From assembly GCA_965223425.1 (NCBI GenBank), contig OZ245003.1, forward strand, positions 1,856,001 through 1,920,000: DNA of 64,000 nucleotides. Reading direction: 5' to 3'. The position numbers were made by a program, and so were the translations under genes. This document shows, piece by piece, positions 11,492-20,211 of this stretch. This DNA comes from Nitrosopumilus sp. (GTDB lineage Archaea; Thermoproteota; Nitrososphaeria; Nitrososphaerales; Nitrosopumilaceae). The stretch's first letter is position 1, and every line of letters starts with the position of its first letter. A model generated the notes under the pieces. That model did no database searches, was not told the DNA's origin, and was given only the letters and a program-made list of their open reading frames with translations.

Positions 11492-12229
11492 ATGGTAAAG
11501 ATTGGAGTGATTCAAACCAAATCCTATACTGCAAACCAAGAAGGAATTTCTAGAATTTCTGCATTGCTTGAGAAACTTGGAAGAAATGAAACAGACATTG
11601 TTTGCTTGCCTGAACAGTGGTTAAGGATCAACGAGATTCCAGATTTTGACTCAGAGTTTTCAGATTTTAAGAAAATCGCCAAGAATTTCTCAATGACTGT
11701 AATTCCAGGAGCATTTTATAAAACAACGAGGAAAAACACCTCAATTCTTGCACCCATAATCGGACCAAAAGGGGAATTTATTGGCAAGCAGGAAAAAATC
11801 CACCCGTTTGACTATGAAAAAGACAAGGTAAAACCTGGAAAGGAAGCTAAAATCTTCAATACAGCATGTAGATTCGGAGTGATAATTTGCTATGATATGG
11901 TATTTCCAAAGGTAGCCGGCACACTAGTGAAAAAGGGGGCACAAGTGTTGTTATCACCAAGCAGGATTGTCAAAAGGGGCATAGAGCCCTGGCACATGTA
12001 TGTTCAAGTAAGAGCATTAGAGAACAGAATACCAATTCTTGCAGCTAATGTAGAGAATCACAGGTTTGGGGGCGAAAGTATTGTTGTGGATTTAACTGAA
12101 AACAACAAAGTAGTCACAACAAAAACCACTAAATTAAAAGGTCAGAGTGCAATTGCAAGAGAATTTGATCTTAAAAAATATGAAAAAACTAGAAAGAACA
12201 GATTTTCAGATTCTAACAAGTTTCAATAG
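11492..12229 (+). CDS. carbon-nitrogen hydrolase (nitrilase superfamily)
   Basis: E-K-C triad: CLPEQW, QEKIHPF, IICYD; RALEN motif. Confidence 0.92.
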   Translation: MVKIGVIQTKSYTANQEGISRISALLEKLGRNETDIVCLPEQWLRINEIPDFDSEFSDFKKIAKNFSMTVIPGAFYKTTRKNTSILAPIIGPKGEFIGKQEKIHPFDYEKDKVKPGKEAKIFNTACRFGVIICYDMVFPKVAGTLVKKGAQVLLSPSRIVKRGIEPWHMYVQVRALENRIPILAANVENHRFGGESIVVDLTENNKVVTTKTTKLKGQSAIAREFDLKKYEKTRKNRFSDSNKFQ

Positions 12230-13324
12230 CTATGTGCCTGCAACAAACTTCTCACACGCATCTTTTGCTGCAACATCTGAGGTTTGTTCTATTGGATGTT
12301 TCATCAAATAAGCACTTGCAGGTTTAATTGGTCCACCAACCCCTCTATCAAGCGCAATTTTTGCTAACCTAACTGCATCAATTACTATTCCTGCAGAGTT
12401 TGCTTTATCATCAACCTCTAAACGAACTTCCATATTATATGGAATATTTGCCCATTGGCGTCCTTCAATTCGCATAAACATGAGTTTAGTATTGCCTAAG
12501 AATGGAATGAAATCAGAAGGACCAACATAGATTTGGTCATCATCCAGTCTTTCATCGAGCTGACTTTGAACACTTTCAGTTTTAGAGATTTTTTTAGAAA
12601 CAAGTCTTTCCTGTTCTTTCATATTTAGAAAATCAGTGTTGCCTCCAACATTGATTTGGTATGTTTTTTCAATTTTAGTTCCTCTATCATTACATAATTT
12701 AGCTAAGGTCCTATGAACGATAGTTGCACCAACTTGACCCTTAATGTCATCACCAATACAAGGAATATTTTTTTCTTCGAATTTTTTGGCCCAGTTCTCA
12801 TCTGAGGCAATAAATGAGGGAATACAATTTACAAATGCAGTATTTGTGTCAAGACAAATTTGAGCCCAAAACTCGGTTACTTTATCAGAGCCTACAGGCA
12901 AATACGATACAAGAATTTCAGCGCCAGAGTCTTTGATAATTTGTTTTACTTTTTCTGCAATCTGTTCAGTGGTTTTGTCACTTTGAATTGGCTTGACTCT
13001 ATTTTCCACCCACAATCCAACTCCATCCAATACAGGACTCTCATAGACTTTAGCGTCAGTTTTTGGCATTTCACCTTTAGGAATCCAATCAACCATGTTT
13101 GGATATTCATATATTGCCTCCATGAGGGGCTTGCCGACTTTGTTTTCACCAACATCAAATCCACAAACAAAGTCTATATCATAAATGCCATATCCTGCTA
13201 ATTTTTCATGAATGATGCCAATTACTTGTTGAGAGGGATTTTTTCGATAGTATTCAATACCTTGAATCAATCCTGAAAAACAATTACCAATACCTACCAA
13301 ACCGACTTTAATTCTGTCCCCCAT
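12230..13324 (-). CDS. ino1: myo-inositol-1-phosphate synthase
   Basis: GIGNC, SYLPVGS, GDDIKGQVGAT, GGNTDFLNM, SKKISKT, DKANSAG motifs. Confidence 0.95.
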   Translation of the reverse strand: MGDRIKVGLVGIGNCFSGLIQGIEYYRKNPSQQVIGIIHEKLAGYGIYDIDFVCGFDVGENKVGKPLMEAIYEYPNMVDWIPKGEMPKTDAKVYESPVLDGVGLWVENRVKPIQSDKTTEQIAEKVKQIIKDSGAEILVSYLPVGSDKVTEFWAQICLDTNTAFVNCIPSFIASDENWAKKFEEKNIPCIGDDIKGQVGATIVHRTLAKLCNDRGTKIEKTYQINVGGNTDFLNMKEQERLVSKKISKTESVQSQLDERLDDDQIYVGPSDFIPFLGNTKLMFMRIEGRQWANIPYNMEVRLEVDDKANSAGIVIDAVRLAKIALDRGVGGPIKPASAYLMKHPIEQTSDVAAKDACEKFVAGT

Positions 13325-13405
13325 TTGAAAACTGGTGTTGTTAGACGGGTTTAAAGTTTTCTTGATAGTTACAAAAATAGTTTCAATTAAGGCAGAATTT
13401 TATAC

Positions 13406-14368
13406 TTGGCACCAACGAATCAGATTATGGTAGATCTAGGCAGGCCAGTAAAAGACATTGAAATTGACTCAAATTCGTCAATAGAAAAAATCTTTGAAGA
13501 GTTGTCTCAATCAGGAGGATTTGAGTCAGTAAATCTTGCAGATGGATTAAAAATTTTAACAGAAATGATTTCAGACGAGCAATGTCTTAAATTTGTCTCA
13601 TTTGTAGGCGCTGTTGTTTCAACAGGGTTAAGAGGAATCATCAGAAACATGATCAAAAACAATTGGTTTGATGTTGCCATAACAACTTGTGGTGCATTAG
13701 ATCATGATATTGCAAGACATTTTTCGCATTACAAAGAAGGCTCGTTTACAATGGATGACATGGAATTAGCTGATCAGAACATTCACAGGTTAGGAAATGT
13801 ACTCGTGCCCATGGATAGCTATGGGCCGCTCATTGAAGAAAAGATGCAGGCATTCTTAGAAGAAGAGTATCAGAATGGGAAAAAGGAAATGACAACTGCC
13901 GAAATATGCAAAATGATTGGCAAACACCTAGGCGAGGATTCGTTTCTTTATTGGGCAAACAAAAATGATGTCAATGTGATAGTTCCAGGAATAATGGACG
14001 GGGCAGTAGGAAGTCAGATTTGGCTATTTACGCAAAAACACAGTGATTTCAAATTAAACATGACAGGGGATGCAGATTTACTTTCTGGATTGATTTTCAA
14101 AGCTGAAAAATCAGGAGCGTTCATGATTGGAGGCGGAATTTCAAAACACCATACATTGTGGTGGAACCAATACAGGGAAGGGCTAGACTATGCATTTTAC
14201 ATTACAACTGCACAAGAGTTTGACGGCAGTCTTAGCGGGGCACTGGTAAGAGAAGCAATTTCCTGGGGAAAAGTAACACAAAAGGCAAAACAGGCAACAC
14301 TTCATGCAGAAGTAACAACGATTTTACCATTCATTTATGCAGCACTTGCTTCAAAATTAAAAAATTAG
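13406..14368 (+). CDS. dys: deoxyhypusine synthase
   Basis: HRLGNV, GGGISKHH, DGSLSGA, EAISWGK (catalytic Lys). Confidence 0.95.
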   Translation: MAPTNQIMVDLGRPVKDIEIDSNSSIEKIFEELSQSGGFESVNLADGLKILTEMISDEQCLKFVSFVGAVVSTGLRGIIRNMIKNNWFDVAITTCGALDHDIARHFSHYKEGSFTMDDMELADQNIHRLGNVLVPMDSYGPLIEEKMQAFLEEEYQNGKKEMTTAEICKMIGKHLGEDSFLYWANKNDVNVIVPGIMDGAVGSQIWLFTQKHSDFKLNMTGDADLLSGLIFKAEKSGAFMIGGGISKHHTLWWNQYREGLDYAFYITTAQEFDGSLSGALVREAISWGKVTQKAKQATLHAEVTTILPFIYAALASKLKN

Positions 14369-14402
14369 ATAAAAACTATTATCCTATTAATACAAAAACT
14401 AA

Positions 14403-15119
14403 TTGTTGTTTCCCAGAATCAGAATAAAAGAACTAAAACCACTAAATTTAGAAGAGGGCTATCTGATTGACGGGTTCCCTTCAGTGGGATTTAGCAGCGC
14501 AATTGCAACTGAATCAATGGTGCACACGTCACAGTTTGAAGTGGCCGGAGTTATCGACTCGGACAGTTTTCCCCCAATCAGCGTTATTAAAAACGGCAAG
14601 CCCAATTATCCAACCAGGATTTTTGCTAATGATGATTTGAAAGTAGGGGTGTTTTTGTCATATCTTACACTTGATCAGGCATTTCATCGAACCGTAGCTA
14701 AAACAATGCTAAAGTGGGCAAAGAAACACAAAATCGGATTAATTCTGAGCAGTGTGGCAGTCAAGACACCAGAAGGTATTGAAGAAATGGTATGCATTGG
14801 AAGTACAGATTCTGCAAGAGAGAAAATCAACAAAGCTGGTTTGAAAGTTTTAGAACATGGAACAGTTCCAGGAATTCCAGGACTGTTATTAAACGAAGGA
14901 AGCCTAACAGGTCAGGACGTGATCGTAATAATTTTCCATACGGATGGCAAGGGTCCTGATTTCAAATCAAGCGCACAACTTTGCCTTGCAATGTCCAAAT
15001 TAATTCCGGGAGTGTCATGTGATATTTCTTCGTTACAAAAAGAAGCTGAAAAAGCTGAAGTGGTGATAAAAGAGGCAGAAGAGGAATCAAAGCACCTTAA
15101 AGGTTCCATGTATAGATAG
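14403..15119 (+). CDS. PAC2 family proteasome assembly chaperone
   Basis: LIDGFPSVG N-terminal motif, GIPGLLL, PDFKSS, C-terminal MYR HbYX motif. Confidence 0.88.
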   Translation: MLFPRIRIKELKPLNLEEGYLIDGFPSVGFSSAIATESMVHTSQFEVAGVIDSDSFPPISVIKNGKPNYPTRIFANDDLKVGVFLSYLTLDQAFHRTVAKTMLKWAKKHKIGLILSSVAVKTPEGIEEMVCIGSTDSAREKINKAGLKVLEHGTVPGIPGLLLNEGSLTGQDVIVIIFHTDGKGPDFKSSAQLCLAMSKLIPGVSCDISSLQKEAEKAEVVIKEAEEESKHLKGSMYR

Positions 15120-15206
15120 AATTTTTCTGTTGTACGAAAAGTAAGTCCGCCTAGGATCAGGAGAACAATAGATGATTATTTCAGGCTGTACCGATCCAGA
15201 AAAGAT

Positions 15207-15314
15207 ATGGCAAAAAGACTGACAGAAAAATCCCGACAGCACATAATCAGACAGCGCAAAAAGGGAATCGTCTCCGCCCAGATAGCCAAGGATCTTGGCA
15301 TCACGGCAAGACAT
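15207..15314 (+). pseudogene. IS481 transposase N-terminal fragment
   Basis: MAKRLTEKSRQHIIRQRKKG..., homologous to the 5' end of the IS481 copy at 21384-22430; cut by ISH3 at ACAT. Confidence 0.8.
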
Positions 15315-15571
15315 CAGTAGTTCCCAGATGTAGATTTGTGCCCAGATGTATGCTTATGCCCAGATGCCGGTGCGTTACCGCATATTGCAATGCAAAGATC
15401 CAGATTAGGTTACGGTGTGCAAGATGTCATGAGCAATCAAACACAAGACGATCTGATCGCACACCAGTACGACATAGCATCAAACCGGTTTAAAATCTTG
15501 CGCTCGTCGTTTCAAAAGCTTGGCATGCCAATGTCTGAGAGGCACAACGCCGTATACGGATGCAACGACAT
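15315..15571 (+). mobile_element. ISH3-family left-end fragment
   Basis: IR CAGTAGTTCCCAGATGTAG, subterminal 18-bp repeats and transposase 5' end similar to 55965 onward. Confidence 0.85.
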
Positions 15572-15990
15572 CAGTAGTTCCCAGATGTAGATTTACCGCA
15601 ACCGCAACTGGCACCGGTTATATTTGCCTCGATCAATGACAAACGACTTGTTTCTGCCTGTAATGTACACGATAAACAACGCCATGGTAAGTTTTTTGTA
15701 ACTGATCGAGTTTATGAAGTTGCATGCGTAAAACACATCAAAATCACAGATTTTACATCCAATTTAGGCACGGCACTTCAGAAACACGAGCTGTTACAGT
15801 TTTTTTCCCGCAGAAGACACTCTTCCGTGCCTCTTTTCTGCATCAAGGCAGAACCTGGCAATCCTCCACAGGTTGTACAGCAGCAGCAGCGGCAGATAAA
15901 ACATCAGCAGCCTCACAGCCAGGGAGTTGCTGCATGTCCTGCCCATGATTTCCTTTATGACGCGAAACCCCGTCTCGATGCCCCATCTTG
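15572..15990 (-). mobile_element. ISH3-family right-end fragment (inserted in the previous copy, carries a MITE)
   Basis: same IR; RWGIETGFR...LYNLWR C-terminus; near-identical to 22462-22770. Confidence 0.85.
15697..15798. mobile_element. 102-bp MITE
   Basis: TGTAAC...GTTACA ends, 6-bp TSD GTTTTT; absent from the other ISH3 copies; homologous to 11312-11413. Confidence 0.9.
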
Positions 15991-16135
15991 AACACATGAT
16001 AACCACCTCGTCGTAGTTGTAGTGATGAATCGACCCCTGTGTACGTATGGGCCATGCGCCCTTGAGTTTGAATGGGGCAGTCCGAGCTGCTGTGTGATTG
16101 GGCCTTGCGCCCTGATAGGTGTATGCAGCTTCCGA
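15991..16135 (+). ncRNA. candidate IS110 bridge RNA (non-coding left end)
   Basis: two tandem stem/internal-loop/hairpin units at 16034-16077 and 16085-16130, directly upstream of the IS110 recombinase ATG (16170). Confidence 0.65.
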
Positions 16136-16672
16136 TCCGTCAAAGATCCGAAAGGAGGTGATAGAAAGGATGAGCAAAGGAACAATCAGCATAGGAATAG
16201 ACATTGGAAAGAGAAAATGTGACGTATGCGTCATGGACGGGAAGGGAAAGGTTTTGCATACTGGCCAGTATCAAAACACCGTCTCAGATGCAGACAGATT
16301 CGCAGAACAGACGGCACTCAGGTATTCTGCCAGAAGATGTCAGGCAGCATGCGAGACGACGGGCAACATGTGGAACATCACATACGGCGCCTTTGAGAGA
16401 CATGGAATCGACATAAAGCTTGCCAACACCTACAAGATGGCAATAATTGCAAAGACGGGAAAGAAGACAGACAAGATTGACGCACAAAAGATAGCAAGCG
16501 TATTGAGGATGGATTCAATACCAGAGTGTTATGTGCCGTCAGCTGACACAAGAGGAGTCCGGGCCATGGTCAGACAGAGGATCAGGACCGTACAGGACAG
16601 GACACGCGTGATAAACCGCGTCCACAGCCTGCTTGACAGATACGATGTGAAAATCGATGCCTCTGAGATGTA

Positions 16673-17781
16673 TAGTCTAGAGCAAAAGTTCTTGAGATCA
16701 AATATGTTAGACAGAAATACATTTTGATCACGCCGCACCACGCATTACAATGCCCACAGTAAAATCCGAAGACCTGAAGAAAGCGTACAAGAGGGAGAAG
16801 AACCCTCGTGTCAAGATCAGAATGGCGGCCGTAAACATGGTGTGCATGAACAATGAAAGCATTCAACATGTGGCAGACTCGCTCATGCAGTGCCCCAACT
16901 GGGTGTCCTTCTGGGTGGAACGCTTCAAGGAGGAGGAGGGCGGCATAGACGCCCTCCGGGATCTTCCAAAGACAGGCAGGCCGCCAAAGGTTCGGTTGGA
17001 CAAGATTGCAAGGGTTGTATCAGATGCAAACAGCAGCGGCATTATTACGCCAAAAAGACTCAAAAGCGACATACAAAAAAGATTCAAAGTAAAATACCAC
17101 ATAACCAGCATCAGAAAGATAATGCACAAGCTTGGAATGTCTGCCAAGACGGCTCAGCGCATCCACGTCGGCAGGGCAGAAATTGACAAAATCAAAAGGT
17201 GGCAACACAATGCAAAAAGGCGGATTTCACGCCTGGAATTGAAGGGTTTTACAACTGTCGTTTTTGACGAATCGATATTCATCGACGATCCTGCAAGTGG
17301 CGCAAAGTACTGGTCACCAAAAGGGGAGCCAATCACAACGACATACAAGGGACGGTACGGCAGGAGGGTGGTGGCATACGGCTCCATTGCGACAGACGGC
17401 AGGCAGTTCTTTAGGACATATGACAGGTTTGACAAGGAGACGGTTCTGCAATACATCAAGGAGATGACAAGTCATTTTGGCAAGGTGACAATCATCATGG
17501 ACAACGCGCCGCAGCACAAGGCAAGGATTGTAAAAGAGTTTCTTGCAGGCAACCCCGATGTCAGGACAATATGGCTTCCGACTGCAACGCCTGAGCTCAG
17601 TGTAGTTGAGGAGTACTGGCATCAGGCAAAACGGGACGTGTCGGTATCTGAATATTACGCTACGGTTGTGCACATGCGCCATGCAATGTCAGAATATTTC
17701 AGGACAGCCCGTCCCAAGCTTGATGCGATGAAGTTTATCTGTAGAAGGTCGCTCACTCTCAAAAACTTTTGATTGACACTA
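16673..17781 (+). mobile_element. IS630-family element
   Basis: imperfect IRs TAGTCTAGAGCAAAAGTTCTTGAGA / TAGTGTCAATCAAAAGTTTTTGAGA; TA duplication; removal restores the IS110 frame (EMYAIK). Confidence 0.92.
16750..17772 (+). CDS. IS630 transposase, intact
   Basis: HTH, GRPP, FDES, MDNAPQH, PELSVVEEYW DDE motifs. Confidence 0.93.
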   Translation: MPTVKSEDLKKAYKREKNPRVKIRMAAVNMVCMNNESIQHVADSLMQCPNWVSFWVERFKEEEGGIDALRDLPKTGRPPKVRLDKIARVVSDANSSGIITPKRLKSDIQKRFKVKYHITSIRKIMHKLGMSAKTAQRIHVGRAEIDKIKRWQHNAKRRISRLELKGFTTVVFDESIFIDDPASGAKYWSPKGEPITTTYKGRYGRRVVAYGSIATDGRQFFRTYDRFDKETVLQYIKEMTSHFGKVTIIMDNAPQHKARIVKEFLAGNPDVRTIWLPTATPELSVVEEYWHQAKRDVSVSEYYATVVHMRHAMSEYFRTARPKLDAMKFICRRSLTLKNF

Positions 17782-18298
17782 TATGCCATAAAGGCCGTAG
17801 AACAGATGGAGTCTGCAAGCCTGGGATCCGTACATGACGAAATAGTACCGAGTCAGTGTGCCCGGCAGATAAGGAGCCTTACCGAGGAGATAAGACACAT
17901 GGATGAACACCTGGAAAAGGAGGCATCGGTAAACGAGGATGCAAAACTTCTTGCCAGCATGACTGGCATGGGAATCTACTCTGCACTGCTGCTTGCCGTC
18001 GAGATAGCCGACATTGTCAGATTCGAGACCCCAAAGAATCCCGTCTCATGGGCAGGCCTGTGTCCGGCGATACGCCAGTCAGGCGACAAAAACTACATGG
18101 GCAGAATCAAAAAGCTTGACACCAACAGTCTGGTCAACTGGGTCATGTGCGAGGCTGCAAACACGGCGGCAATTCATGATACCAGAATGAAGGCAGTATA
18201 CGAGTCTTCCAAGAGAAGACATGCAGGCAAGCATGCACTTGCCATAGTGACTGTCGCCAACAAGATGATAACCATAGCGTGGCACATACTCAAGACCA

Positions 18299-19437
18299 TA
18301 GTAAGTACATAAAAAACCTGAACCATTTTGACAATTATTTTTGGCCAAAAGATCCAAGACCGGCCATACCGCACACACTGCATGTACAAACAAAAAAAGA
18401 GACAGGCTGCAGGGGGGCAAAATTTCTGCCAAACACCGGCGTTGCAGACCTCAAAAGGGCATACAAAAAAGAGACCGATCCCAGAAGGCGCGACAGGCTG
18501 CTTGCGTACATGCAGCGCAAGGACGGCGTGCCGCTAGACAGGATCGGAAGGATGCTGGGAAGGCCCAAGTCCACCATATCTGCATGGCTCAACCGCGCAC
18601 AGGACGAGGGAATGCGCGCAAGGTTCGAGCGCAGCGGCAGGGGACGAAAGCACCTGATAGGCGGGCCGCAGGCAAGACAGCTTGCAGCGGACCTGGATGC
18701 GGGGCCGGAGTCATGCGGCTTTGAGAGCAGCCTGTGGGACTCCAACCTCGCAAGGCTGCACATCAAGCGAAAGTTCGGCGTGCAGTACAGCAAGGCAGGC
18801 GCGCTGCAGCTGGTCAGGGAGATGGGCTTTTCGTGGAGCAAGGCGCGTCCAAAAAACCCAAGATCAGCCTCAAAAAGAAAGCAAAAAGAGTTTCAGGAGC
18901 GGGCAAAAAAACTCGTTGCAGAAAAGTCGGCGCAGGGGTACACCGTACTGGCCGGCGATGCATCCTCGATTCAAAAGGCATCAAACAGGCCCGGCTACGG
19001 GTGGAGAAGGCGCGGCAAGCGCGCCACATCCCCCTCTGTTTTGTCACGCAAGAGAAGATACATTTGGAGTCCTGTCAGCAAGCGCGTTTTACTTTATGTT
19101 TTATGAAAAGCCAGACAGCGACAGCTTTTGCAGCTTTTTGGAACGGGTTCACAAAAGATTCGGCAGGGTGCTGCTGTTTGTAGACAATGCGTCATATCAC
19201 AAATCCAAAAAGGTAAGGGAGTTTCTGGAAAGATACAACGGCGAGATAGTTCTGGAGTACCTGCTGCCGTACACGCCGGAGCTTAATCCCATTGAGATGC
19301 AGTGGAGGGTGATAAAGCGGGTACTGTCTGCAAAGGTGTTTGGCACGCTAGATGAGATGGAGCAGTCAGTACGCAAGCTGTTTGCCAGAAAGGAGATCCT
19401 GCCTGTGAAAATGTTCAATTATTTAATGTGCTAACTA
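18299..19437 (+). mobile_element. IS630-family element with frameshifted transposase
   Basis: IRs TAGTAAGTACAT.../TAGTTAGCACAT...; ORFs 18279-19106 (GDAS) and to 19434 (VDNASYH, PELNPIEMQW) join by a frameshift near 19060. Confidence 0.9.
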
Positions 19438-20211
19438 TGCTATACCATCTCTAGAATCATCAGTGCTATTTCCGGCAATGATTGCGGCAAGTGCAGTCCC
19501 ATGATCATGAGTTTTAGTTGTGGGAGGGCAATTACTGTTACCACAGTTTACTTTACCTGCTTGCTTTCCTTCCAAATCAGGATGTGAGAAATCCACGCCT
19601 CTATCAATAACTGCTACGGTAATCCCGGTACCATGATAATTATACGGATGTGCAGGAATATTGCTTGCGCCACTGGCGGATTTGGCCTGATCCATATTGA
19701 GCCCTAATTCCTCAAATGGAGGTTCGTCCCCAATCTTGTAAATGAAAGTATAGTTTGCCAGCTCAGCTATTCTGTCAATGGGAACATCCGCAGAGACAAA
19801 ATCCAACGCAGTAGACACAAAAATATCTCTGGCATTGGCAGACAATAAAATTTCACGTAACTGGTATTCAGTACCGTTGATTGTATTGATCAGTATAGGA
19901 TGTGTTGGAATACTTTGCTGTCTTGCTGTTTGGTCTGATTTTGCAGCTGTACGGTCGTATTCTATCTGCATCTGCTGAATTTTTTCATAAAAACCAGCGT
20001 CAAATTTGTACATGTTCTCTTCGTGGCATAAGATTCCCATGCAGAAAATGACATCAGTGTAATTATCAAGACCGCAACAATTAGTTTTTCAAGGTCAGTG
20101 TTTTTCATTTTTAATGTTAATCAATTTAAGAACGGTTACAATATAAATGAGCTACCGAAATCAGTTAATCATAACTTCACTTCCGAGACAACTGTCCATA
20201 TCAAATGCATC
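19435..20211 (-). pseudogene. subtilisin-like S8 protease pseudogene
   Basis: GTGITVAVIDRGVD (Asp) and HDHGTALAAIIAG (His); truncated by IS630 before the catalytic Ser; 5' end degraded. Confidence 0.8.

Follow-up and report, generated by a model that had tools for sequence, protein, structure and literature searches.

A probable bridge RNA with target- and donor-binding loops in the left end of an IS1111-type IS110-family element from an ammonia-oxidizing archaeon

We analyzed a 64,000-nucleotide stretch of a Nitrosopumilus sp. genome (contig OZ245003.1, positions 1,856,001 to 1,920,000, in our numbering G000:C1:1856001-1920000; hereafter, the window), in which an earlier note had placed a candidate bridge RNA in the non-coding left end of a thaumarchaeal IS110 element, with two internal loops that would bind target and donor, respectively. 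Our analysis bears this proposal out. The segment at 15989-16169 is very probably the left end of a 1,407-bp, IS1111-type element of the IS110 family, and it encodes on the + strand a bridge RNA composed of a closing stem (P1), a target-binding loop (unit 1) and a donor-binding loop (unit 2). The stems of this RNA covary among related elements, and the four loop strands covary either with the DNA flanking the insertion or with the ends of the element itself. The host genome encodes archaeal AmoA (392 bits) and thus belongs to an ammonia-oxidizing archaeon.

The recombinase and a conserved two-loop RNA upstream of its gene

Both units were found exactly where the note had claimed them. Unit 1 (16034-16077) reads CCCC (16034-37) TGTGTACGTAT GGGC-CATGC-GCCC TTGAGTTTGAAT GGGG (16074-77), and unit 2 (16085-16130) reads AGCTGC (16085-90) TGTGTGATT GGGC-CTTGC-GCCC TGATAGGTGTAT GCAGCT (16125-30). 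They are located upstream of a gene for a DEDD recombinase, with 40 nt separating unit 2 from its ATG (16170).

The RNA was compared among relatives of the element. A search with the intact recombinase against 401 genomes of the class gave matches in 70, a number that counts the window's own genome, the unpublished genome G283 and more remote members of the IS110 family. The 30 best loci were chosen, and the region upstream of the open reading frame (ORF) was readable in 26 of them; the comparison set contained eight copies from the own genome and about 25 orthologues sharing 36-70% protein identity. In a MAFFT alignment of 19 left-end segments (alignment A1), RNAalifold independently recovered P1, pairing 16024-16032 with 16133-16141 and enclosing both units. 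When the structure is imposed on A1 as written down, 92.3% of the cells are paired, compared with 31-47% when the partners are slid, and compensatory changes are present in 18 of the 26 pairs; no measure was reached by any of 500 shuffles. The inner hairpin, for example, occurs in the versions GGGC/GCCC, GTGC/GCAC, GCAC/GTGC, GGTC/GACC and GATC/GATC.

A covariance model of the RNA (R1) gave 34 matches in 39 sources and identified exactly eight full copies in the host genome. In an alignment of these 34 sequences (A2), which is fitted to the model, 94.2% of the cells are paired and 19 of the 26 pairs show compensatory changes. Homologues and a covariance model had been proposed in the note as a check on its reading, and the stems are indeed conserved and compensatory in the sets of both 19 and 34 sequences. 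Of 151 genomes sampled from the class, 20 contained R1 matches, and these fell into 12 of 48 genera, counting the own genome and the unpublished genome G132, with up to 20 copies in one genome. The stem cells contain 36 G.U against 14 A.C combinations, an excess that fits an RNA read from the + strand, which is also the strand of the recombinase gene. A conserved, structured, two-loop RNA is thus found beside the recombinase gene, one of the marks by which a bridge RNA is recognized.

The protein belongs to the IS110 family by its domains. The two halves of the ORF in the window match PF01548 and PF02371, and the intact copy matches the NCBIfam model NF033542, 'IS110 family RNA-guided transposase', with 212.6 bits (cut-off 140). 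The catalytic residues of the intact copy are Asp-11, Glu-62, Asp-101, Asp-104 and Ser-267, which include the serine of the SG motif and correspond in position to Asp-11, Glu-60, Asp-102, Asp-105 and Ser-241 of IS621, an equivalence established by alignment only. Its catalytic motifs also align with those of the ISCro4 chain. Similarity to these solved chains is remote (ISCro4, E 7e-9; IS621, E 2.2e-7; phmmer, 8wt6). The GL-P----S(t)G motif is present as GLCPAIRQSG at residues 259-268.

We located the copies of the element by BLAST against the whole genome. An intact copy (c2063) occupies C1:2063371-2064777, measures 1,407 bp and encodes a 364-residue recombinase, to which the N-terminal part in the window is 97.7% identical over residues 1-171. 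Three further copies are interrupted but retain both ends (c850, c2135 and c276), and one is truncated (c1969). There are also two diverged, truncated relatives (c129, 88%; c2362, 78%) and two fragments (c367 and c803). The window copy itself is dead and cannot move, because its recombinase gene is interrupted by an IS630-family element and its last ~206 bp, comprising 25 codons, an outward promoter-like box, the right subterminal inverted repeat (sTIR) and the right end, were lost to a second, IS630-like element. At the first of these insertions (16674..17781), the break in homology to the intact copy shows a 3-nt overlap, TAT. The note had expected that removal of the first IS630 would restore most of the recombinase; this holds for residues 1-339 of 364, but not for the last 25 codons and the right end. 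The reconstruction that it envisaged is unnecessary given the intact copy at G000:C1:2063371-2064777 in the same genome.

Covariation of the loop strands with insertion sites and element ends

The boundaries of the element were defined from its copies. All left junctions read flank|(C/T)(T/C)TGAACACATGATAACC, and the right junctions, four in number, all have the form ...GGTGGTTAACATAGGTG|flank. The left flank of the window copy (15315..15988), which includes the minus-strand ORF end ...CSRWGIETGFRVIKE, is a fragment of a repeat that we call IS-A; IS-A copies without the insertion read ...GATGCCCCATC(TC)TTG|CGGTACTGCT (12 copies shown). Copy c276 sits at ...CCCTGAGCACTAGTT-TG-TTGCATAACACGCCTAAGCCAGTC and has an uninterrupted counterpart with the same left flank at C1:814378, so that filled and empty sites together document a clean insertion at TG. 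The element ends also form branch points in the contigs of four public runs (loose ends L021 1318 and 2723/2724); no circle-junction or empty-site joint was seen in these contigs. The left junction proposed by the note, TGTGTTCAA, is the reverse complement of 15989-15997 (TTGAACACA), and the boundary does lie at the TG of 15989-15990, but part of the loop assignments derived from it did not stand. TGTGT, on the 5' side of unit 2, is indeed complementary to ACACA in the left end, but TTGAA, on the 3' side of unit 1, represents the core and handshake nucleotides and is no donor guide. A second true donor match is provided by ATAGGTG on the 3' side of unit 2, which equals the right end plus core.

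Among the copies in the own genome, unit 2 hardly varies, in contrast to unit 1. The 3' side of unit 1 follows the pattern TTGA-NNNN-TGAAT, in which the tetramer is ATCT, AGCT, AGTT or TTTC. Nine of ten aligned copies and fragments keep this side, in four versions, and the left flanks before TG carry the same four tetramers; in the c803 fragment, where the 3' guide of unit 1 is lost, the flanking tetramer is TGTT. Among the orthologues, the 3' side matches the element's own left flank contiguously from TG over a mean of 4.48 nt (at least 4 nt in 19 of 21), compared with 1.37 nt for non-own flanks (at least 4 nt in 13 of 420 pairs). One search rule was used for own and non-own flanks, and own-genome copies and two near-duplicates were excluded. 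Compared with the two initial nucleotides of the element, the dinucleotide that follows TG in unit 1 is identical at 43 of 48 positions (24 rows; L033, whose left end is cut by the contig end, is uninformative), with AA, AC and GA covarying. The reverse complement of the 5' side of unit 1 agrees with the right flank at 4.64 of 8 positions for own and at 2.19 for non-own flanks, and the run contiguous from the core is 3.41 versus 0.41 nt (permutation p <= 5e-5). This comparison covered 22 elements after one near-duplicate had been dropped, and the right ends were located from unit 2 alone. Unit 1 hence changes together with the target on either side of the core, as one loop of a bridge RNA should.

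The second loop behaves in the same way toward the element ends. A 7-mer on the 3' side of unit 2 is found exactly at the right end, beside the sTIR, in 23 elements, and it covaries in five versions (ATAGGTG in 10, ATAGATG in 7, and ATGGATG, ACAGGTG and ATGAGTG in 2 each). The 5' side of unit 2 can pair with left-end nucleotides just inside the core, over a mean of 4.70 nt in own, compared with 3.40 nt in non-own combinations (23 elements, p 1e-4), with pairs such as TGTGT/ACACA, TGTAT/ATACA, TAAAG/CTTTA and GCTTTC/GAAAGC. An sTIR hairpin of at least 12 pairs forms in 18 of 21 orthologue folds, and the 12-bp sTIR falls into the 7-17 bp range of IS1111. Because the strands of unit 1 track the target flanks and those of unit 2 track the element ends, we assign unit 1 as the target-binding and unit 2 as the donor-binding loop. 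The comparison of loops with insertion targets, also envisaged in the note, thus extends to all four strands, and covariation of the other loop with both element ends is what is expected of a donor-binding loop.

By analogy with the bacterial IS621 and IS1111 seekRNA systems, the RNA would be transcribed and bound by the DEDD recombinase, and the RNA-bound enzyme would then catalyze joining of the abutted ends of an excised circle to a target bearing TG; in the host genome, the targets are other insertion sequences. The last two nucleotides of unit 1 (AA), which match the first two of the element, may act like the handshake guide of IS621, where a 2-nt handshake guide follows the 3' guide, according to the portions of PMC11208160 (Durrant et al. 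2024) and PMC11208158 (Hiraizumi et al. 2024) consulted. The donor would in turn be specified by unit 2, in which the 3' strand equals the right-end terminus ATAGG plus TG and the 5' strand is the complement of left-end nucleotides 4-8.

Three types of target are occupied in the host genome. The first is the end of a repeat that we term IS-C, of which about 20 uninterrupted copies read TA|G(C/T)T-TG-TTGCATAACACGCCTAA, and which holds c2063 and c276. Another is the IS-A repeat (36-41 copies) at CCCCATCT-TG-CGGTAC, which holds the window copy, and the third, GGCGGCATCT-TG-CGCACAAAGG, is occupied by c850 and c2135, whose two flanks are diverged paralogues. No clear family could be assigned to the ORFs of IS-C and IS-A. 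The Pfam match of IS-A to DDE_Tnp_1 is weak and below cut-off (E 0.0034), and that IS-C might be IS630-like is a guess from its TA flanks only. Own guides suit own sites in c2063, c129, c850, c2362 and c367. The type-B 5' guide (TGTATGCATAT) is shifted by one base relative to the IS-C target.

Three further loci show rearranged or variant guides and targets. L012 (G000:C1:~367314-367415) is a deletion derivative in which TGCATAACACGCCTAAGCC, the end of IS-C, directly follows the first ~87 nt of the left end, which run through the unit 1 3' guide ...GAGTTTGAA. Its joint is consistent with an exchange at the second TG in each of the partners (TTGAA-TG-GGGC x GGTGT-TG-CATAAC) and suggests that guide-encoding DNA (compare 16062-16073 in the window) can itself act as a pseudo-site. 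At L024, the left flank (G148:C1:~1194300) contains a tandem duplication of a 15-nt target half, CCTAATAGTCTGTTG-CCTAATAGTCTGTTG, directly before the element. At the loose end L021:1391, contigs of a public run (X1) carry a further unit 1 variant, ...CCGACCCC-TCACGCACCAT-GGTCAAAGAGA..., with a different 5' guide and inner hairpin, which suggests more natural reprogramming in related populations.

Alternative readings and relation to known systems

Several observations weigh against our assignment of a guide-bearing RNA. Folded as a single sequence, 15985-16175 has a minimum free energy (MFE) of -55.2 kcal/mol, compared with -54.1 +/- 3.85 for shuffled sequences (z -0.29), 75 of 200 shuffles fold equally well, and the MFE fold does not draw the two units. 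As the single-sequence fold is no better than chance, the case rests on comparison. Rfam 15 returned no family on the RNA region (window 15000-19500, E <= 1), its sole match in this interval being a chance microRNA match at 15628-15712. The 5' strand of unit 2 in the window's family matches over 5 nt only and stops short of the core, and a donor-loop handshake gave no signal, the dinucleotide after the core agreeing with the right flank at 14 of 44 positions. In three orthologue families (L003, L046 and L044), the right-flank match is shifted by one base. Finally, guides and own flanks are mismatched in four of the nine copies that retain a guide (the window copy, c1969, c2135 and c276). The 3' guide of the window copy reads AGTT-TG where the flank reads ATCT-TG, so that two of four left-flank positions are mismatched, and its 5' guide is of the c850 type and fits the right half of IS-A only with a one-base offset. 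Such mismatches require that an RNA acted in trans, that copies recombined with one another or that half-matches are tolerated, the last of which has been reported for bacterial IS110 elements in the part of that literature consulted.

It has also to be considered that the hairpins are not guides at all and instead belong to a leader in the recombinase mRNA with a role in translation or transcription, or serve as binding sites at the DNA level. Their position directly upstream of the Shine-Dalgarno-like GGAGGTGA and the ATG would suit such a role, but a leader does not explain why the loops, and not the stems, change with flanks and termini in more than 20 independent elements, and it leaves the G.U pairs of the stems unexplained. 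We therefore consider a leader or DNA-level function very improbable. The note had implied a bridge RNA like that of IS621, a member of the IS110 group, and its model of target- and donor-binding loops in the left end is supported. The location of the RNA upstream of the recombinase, the target loop preceding the donor loop and the simple internal loops all agree with IS621 as described in the consulted portion of PMC11208160. The order of the guides is reversed, however: the top-strand sequence to the left of the core recurs in the 3' sides, and the 5' sides are the complement of the top-strand sequence to its right. The sTIR moreover measures 12 bp, compared with 2-3 bp in the IS110 group, the protein carries the GL-P----SG motif, and its similarity to IS621 is remote (E 2.2e-7). 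An IS621-like RNA is accordingly most unlikely, and the guide order is of the IS1111 type. We had also entertained a possibly new, mirror-image geometry of IS621; this idea was dropped, as the reversed order is the known IS1111 pattern in the portion of PMC11187229 (Siddiquee et al. 2024) consulted.

A refinement of the bridge RNA reading that we put forward tentatively, and hold to be somewhat doubtful, is that the functional RNA is transcribed across the abutted right-end/left-end circle junction, from an outward archaeal promoter in the right end. In this junction form, the 5' end of the RNA (right end -61 to -50) would pair with the linker and the P1 3' strand, and the sTIR hairpin would display the core. 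In 13 of 22 elements, a TATAAA, TTTAAA, TTATAA, TTTATA or TTAAAT box that follows a conserved CTAGCGTTAGC faces outward at a distance of 83-89 nt from the right end. Some 27 nt farther downstream, a segment of 9-11 nt is complementary to the 3-5 nt linker plus P1 3' strand of the same element. In archaeal promoters, transcription is expected to start at about this distance from the box. The segments change in compensatory fashion (ACGGATCGGAA/TTCCGATCCGT, AGACCGGAA/TTCCGGTCT, GTGGATCAGAG/CTCTGATCCAC, GGCTGGAAAT/ATTTCCAGCC and GGCAGCAAA/TTTGCTGCC, with G.U pairs in L026 and L047), and right-end/left-end duplexes have a mean of 7.55 for own, compared with 5.77 for non-own combinations (permutation p 2e-4). 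The linker has no partner inside the left end. When the last 72 nt of the right end are joined to the left end, MFE folds contain the closing helix in 16 of 21 cases and the core-holding sTIR hairpin in 18 of 21.

RNAalifold on the joined alignment, in contrast, picks the left-end P1 over the junction helix, and in fixed columns 60.2% of cells are paired versus 25-46% when slid, the right ends of distant subfamilies aligning poorly. P1 within the left end is fully backed by covariation, so that it and the junction helix are in competition. The TATA box is identified only as a motif, 9 of 22 elements have no canonical box, and the right-end segment could alternatively act in trans or bind protein. 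It is possible, though less likely than not, that the bridge RNA gene is split by the element ends, with promoter, start site and the 5' strand of the closing helix in the right end, and the loops and recombinase gene in the left end. If so, the complete RNA and the recombinase mRNA would arise only from the excised circle, and the RNA would include a transcript of the donor site, in the form of the sTIR hairpin. This would provide a switch that makes ribonucleoprotein assembly dependent on the circular state, and a whole archaeal promoter would do what the split -35/-10 junction promoter does in bacteria.

We compared the archaeal element, with its bridge RNA assigned to the left end as above, to characterized systems. 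It shares with IS621 a left-end RNA upstream of a DEDD recombinase, a target loop placed before the donor loop, internal loops that each read both DNA strands around a 2-nt core, and a 2-nt handshake after the core on a 3' strand. It differs from IS621 in the reversed order of the sides, in the core (TG instead of CT), in the length of the sTIR (12 bp versus 2-3 bp), in a covarying stem that encloses both loops, in its archaeal host and in a protein that is only remotely similar. The IS1111 family (ISEc11, ISPa11 and ISKpn4) is defined, in the portion of PMC11187229 consulted, by subterminal inverted repeats and the GL-P----S(t)G motif, and its RNAs place the complement of the top strand 5' of the bottom-strand match. 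The archaeal element has all three traits, and natural reprogramming among relatives is likewise common to both. In contrast to IS1111, where the non-coding region is downstream, in the right end, that of the archaeal element is upstream, in the left end. Many IS1111 members also hold the donor nucleotides in a multiloop, according to the consulted portion of PMC11208160, whereas here they are found in a simple internal loop, and the recombinase has 364 residues as opposed to the 330-350 stated for the family in the part of PMC11187229 used. We classify the element as an IS110-family member with an IS1111-type bridge RNA in an atypical upstream location.

Similar arrangements are known in outline. 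ISMtsp17 is among the few IS1111-type elements with an upstream non-coding region, the portion of PMC11187229 consulted noting only its location; we liken the two, by description only, as combining IS1111-type features with an upstream non-coding region. Known IS110 elements that target the termini of mobile elements use the same kind of target, the terminal inverted repeat of another element, but hosts, targets and elements differ. The archaeal element uses at least two further target types besides the IS-C end, namely IS-A and the c850/c2135 site. Our searches of the literature turned up no bridge RNA from ammonia-oxidizing archaea; large mining studies may contain it unnamed, and ISfinder lists of elements with predicted bridge RNAs may include relatives.

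Genomic context and significance

The coordinates of the element and its surroundings are collected in Table 1.

Table 1. Features in and around the window copy of the element, in window positions
Feature	Position	Strand	Evidence
Left flank: IS-A fragment (36-41-copy repeat), the element's insertion site	15315..15988	-	Copy-number profile
Core dinucleotide TG (crossover site), common to target and both element ends	15989..15990	+	Left junctions of 10 copies, right junctions of 4, empty sites
Non-coding left end with bridge RNA gene (probable)	15989..16169	+	Homology to other copies from 15987-15989; covariance model R1 match 16018-16149, 131.9 bits
Left sTIR ATGATAACCACC	15996..16007	+	Partner GGTGGTTAACAT near right end of intact copies; 11/12 positions complementary
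P1 closing stem, 5' strand GATGAATCG	16024..16032	+	Pairs with 16133-16141; compensatory in 8/9 pairs (A1), 9/9 (A2)
Unit 1, target-binding loop	16034..16077	+	Outer stem 16034-37/16074-77; hairpin 16049-16061
Unit 1, 5' guide	16038-16048	+	Complementary to TG plus right flank
Unit 1, 3' guide	16062-16073	+	Equals 4-6 nt of left flank, TG and AA handshake
Unit 2, donor-binding loop	16086..16129	+	Outer stem GCTGC/GCAGC; hairpin 16100-16112
Unit 2, 5' guide	16091-16099	+	TGTGT complementary to left-end ACACA (15992-15996)
Unit 2, 3' guide	16113-16124	+	ATAGGTG equals right end plus core
P1 closing stem, 3' strand CGATCCGTC	16133..16141	+	Covariation, RNAalifold
Shine-Dalgarno-like motif GGAGGTGA before recombinase ATG (putative function)	16154..16161	+	Kept upstream of orthologues
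Recombinase gene, N-terminal part, residues 1-168, DEDD RuvC-like domain	16170..16673	+	Pfam PF01548 (DEDD_Tnp_IS110), E 1.7e-29
IS630-family element in recombinase gene; 340-aa DDE_3 transposase; 12-13 genome copies	16674..17781	+	Pfam DDE_3/HTH_33
Recombinase gene, C-terminal part, to residue 339 of 364, with GLCPAIRQSG	17782..18298	+	Pfam PF02371 (Transposase_20), E 1.6e-17; tblastn residues 167-339
Second IS630-like element, frameshifted, about 30 copies; cuts off the IS110-family element	18299..19440	+	Pfam HTH_33/DDE_3

Four mobile elements are nested or abutted within 4 kb (15315-19440), namely IS-A, the IS110-family element, the IS630 element and the second IS630-like element, and unique DNA resumes at 19444. 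Neither the other half of IS-A nor the right end of the IS110-family element is present, so that the last insertion must have involved a deletion or rearrangement. To the left of this cluster, 11492-15119 contains unique genes that we take, from reading their translations, to encode a nitrilase-type hydrolase, a myo-inositol-1-phosphate synthase, a deoxyhypusine synthase and a PAC2-type protein.

Several other IS110-family recombinase genes are present in the same genome, with products that are only 25-31% identical to the element's recombinase (for example, G000:C1: 2062454-2061404, 785400-786450, 1500641-1503198, 2046362-2047330, 324346-323378, 1159089 and 1203040). The RNA model R1 has no match beside these genes, and they are thus probably accompanied by other classes of bridge RNA.

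Recombinases guided by bridge (seek) RNAs are a recent and much-used programmable class, and the work on them that we consulted, in part, is bacterial. The element described here adds a well-supported archaeal family, with an intact copy, four natural guide variants and three target types in one genome. Because it unites IS1111 traits with a simple two-loop RNA located upstream, it is relevant to the question of how the RNA passed from one element end to the other in evolution. In an archaeal genome rich in insertion sequences, it would represent an RNA-guided element with other insertion sequences as its prey.

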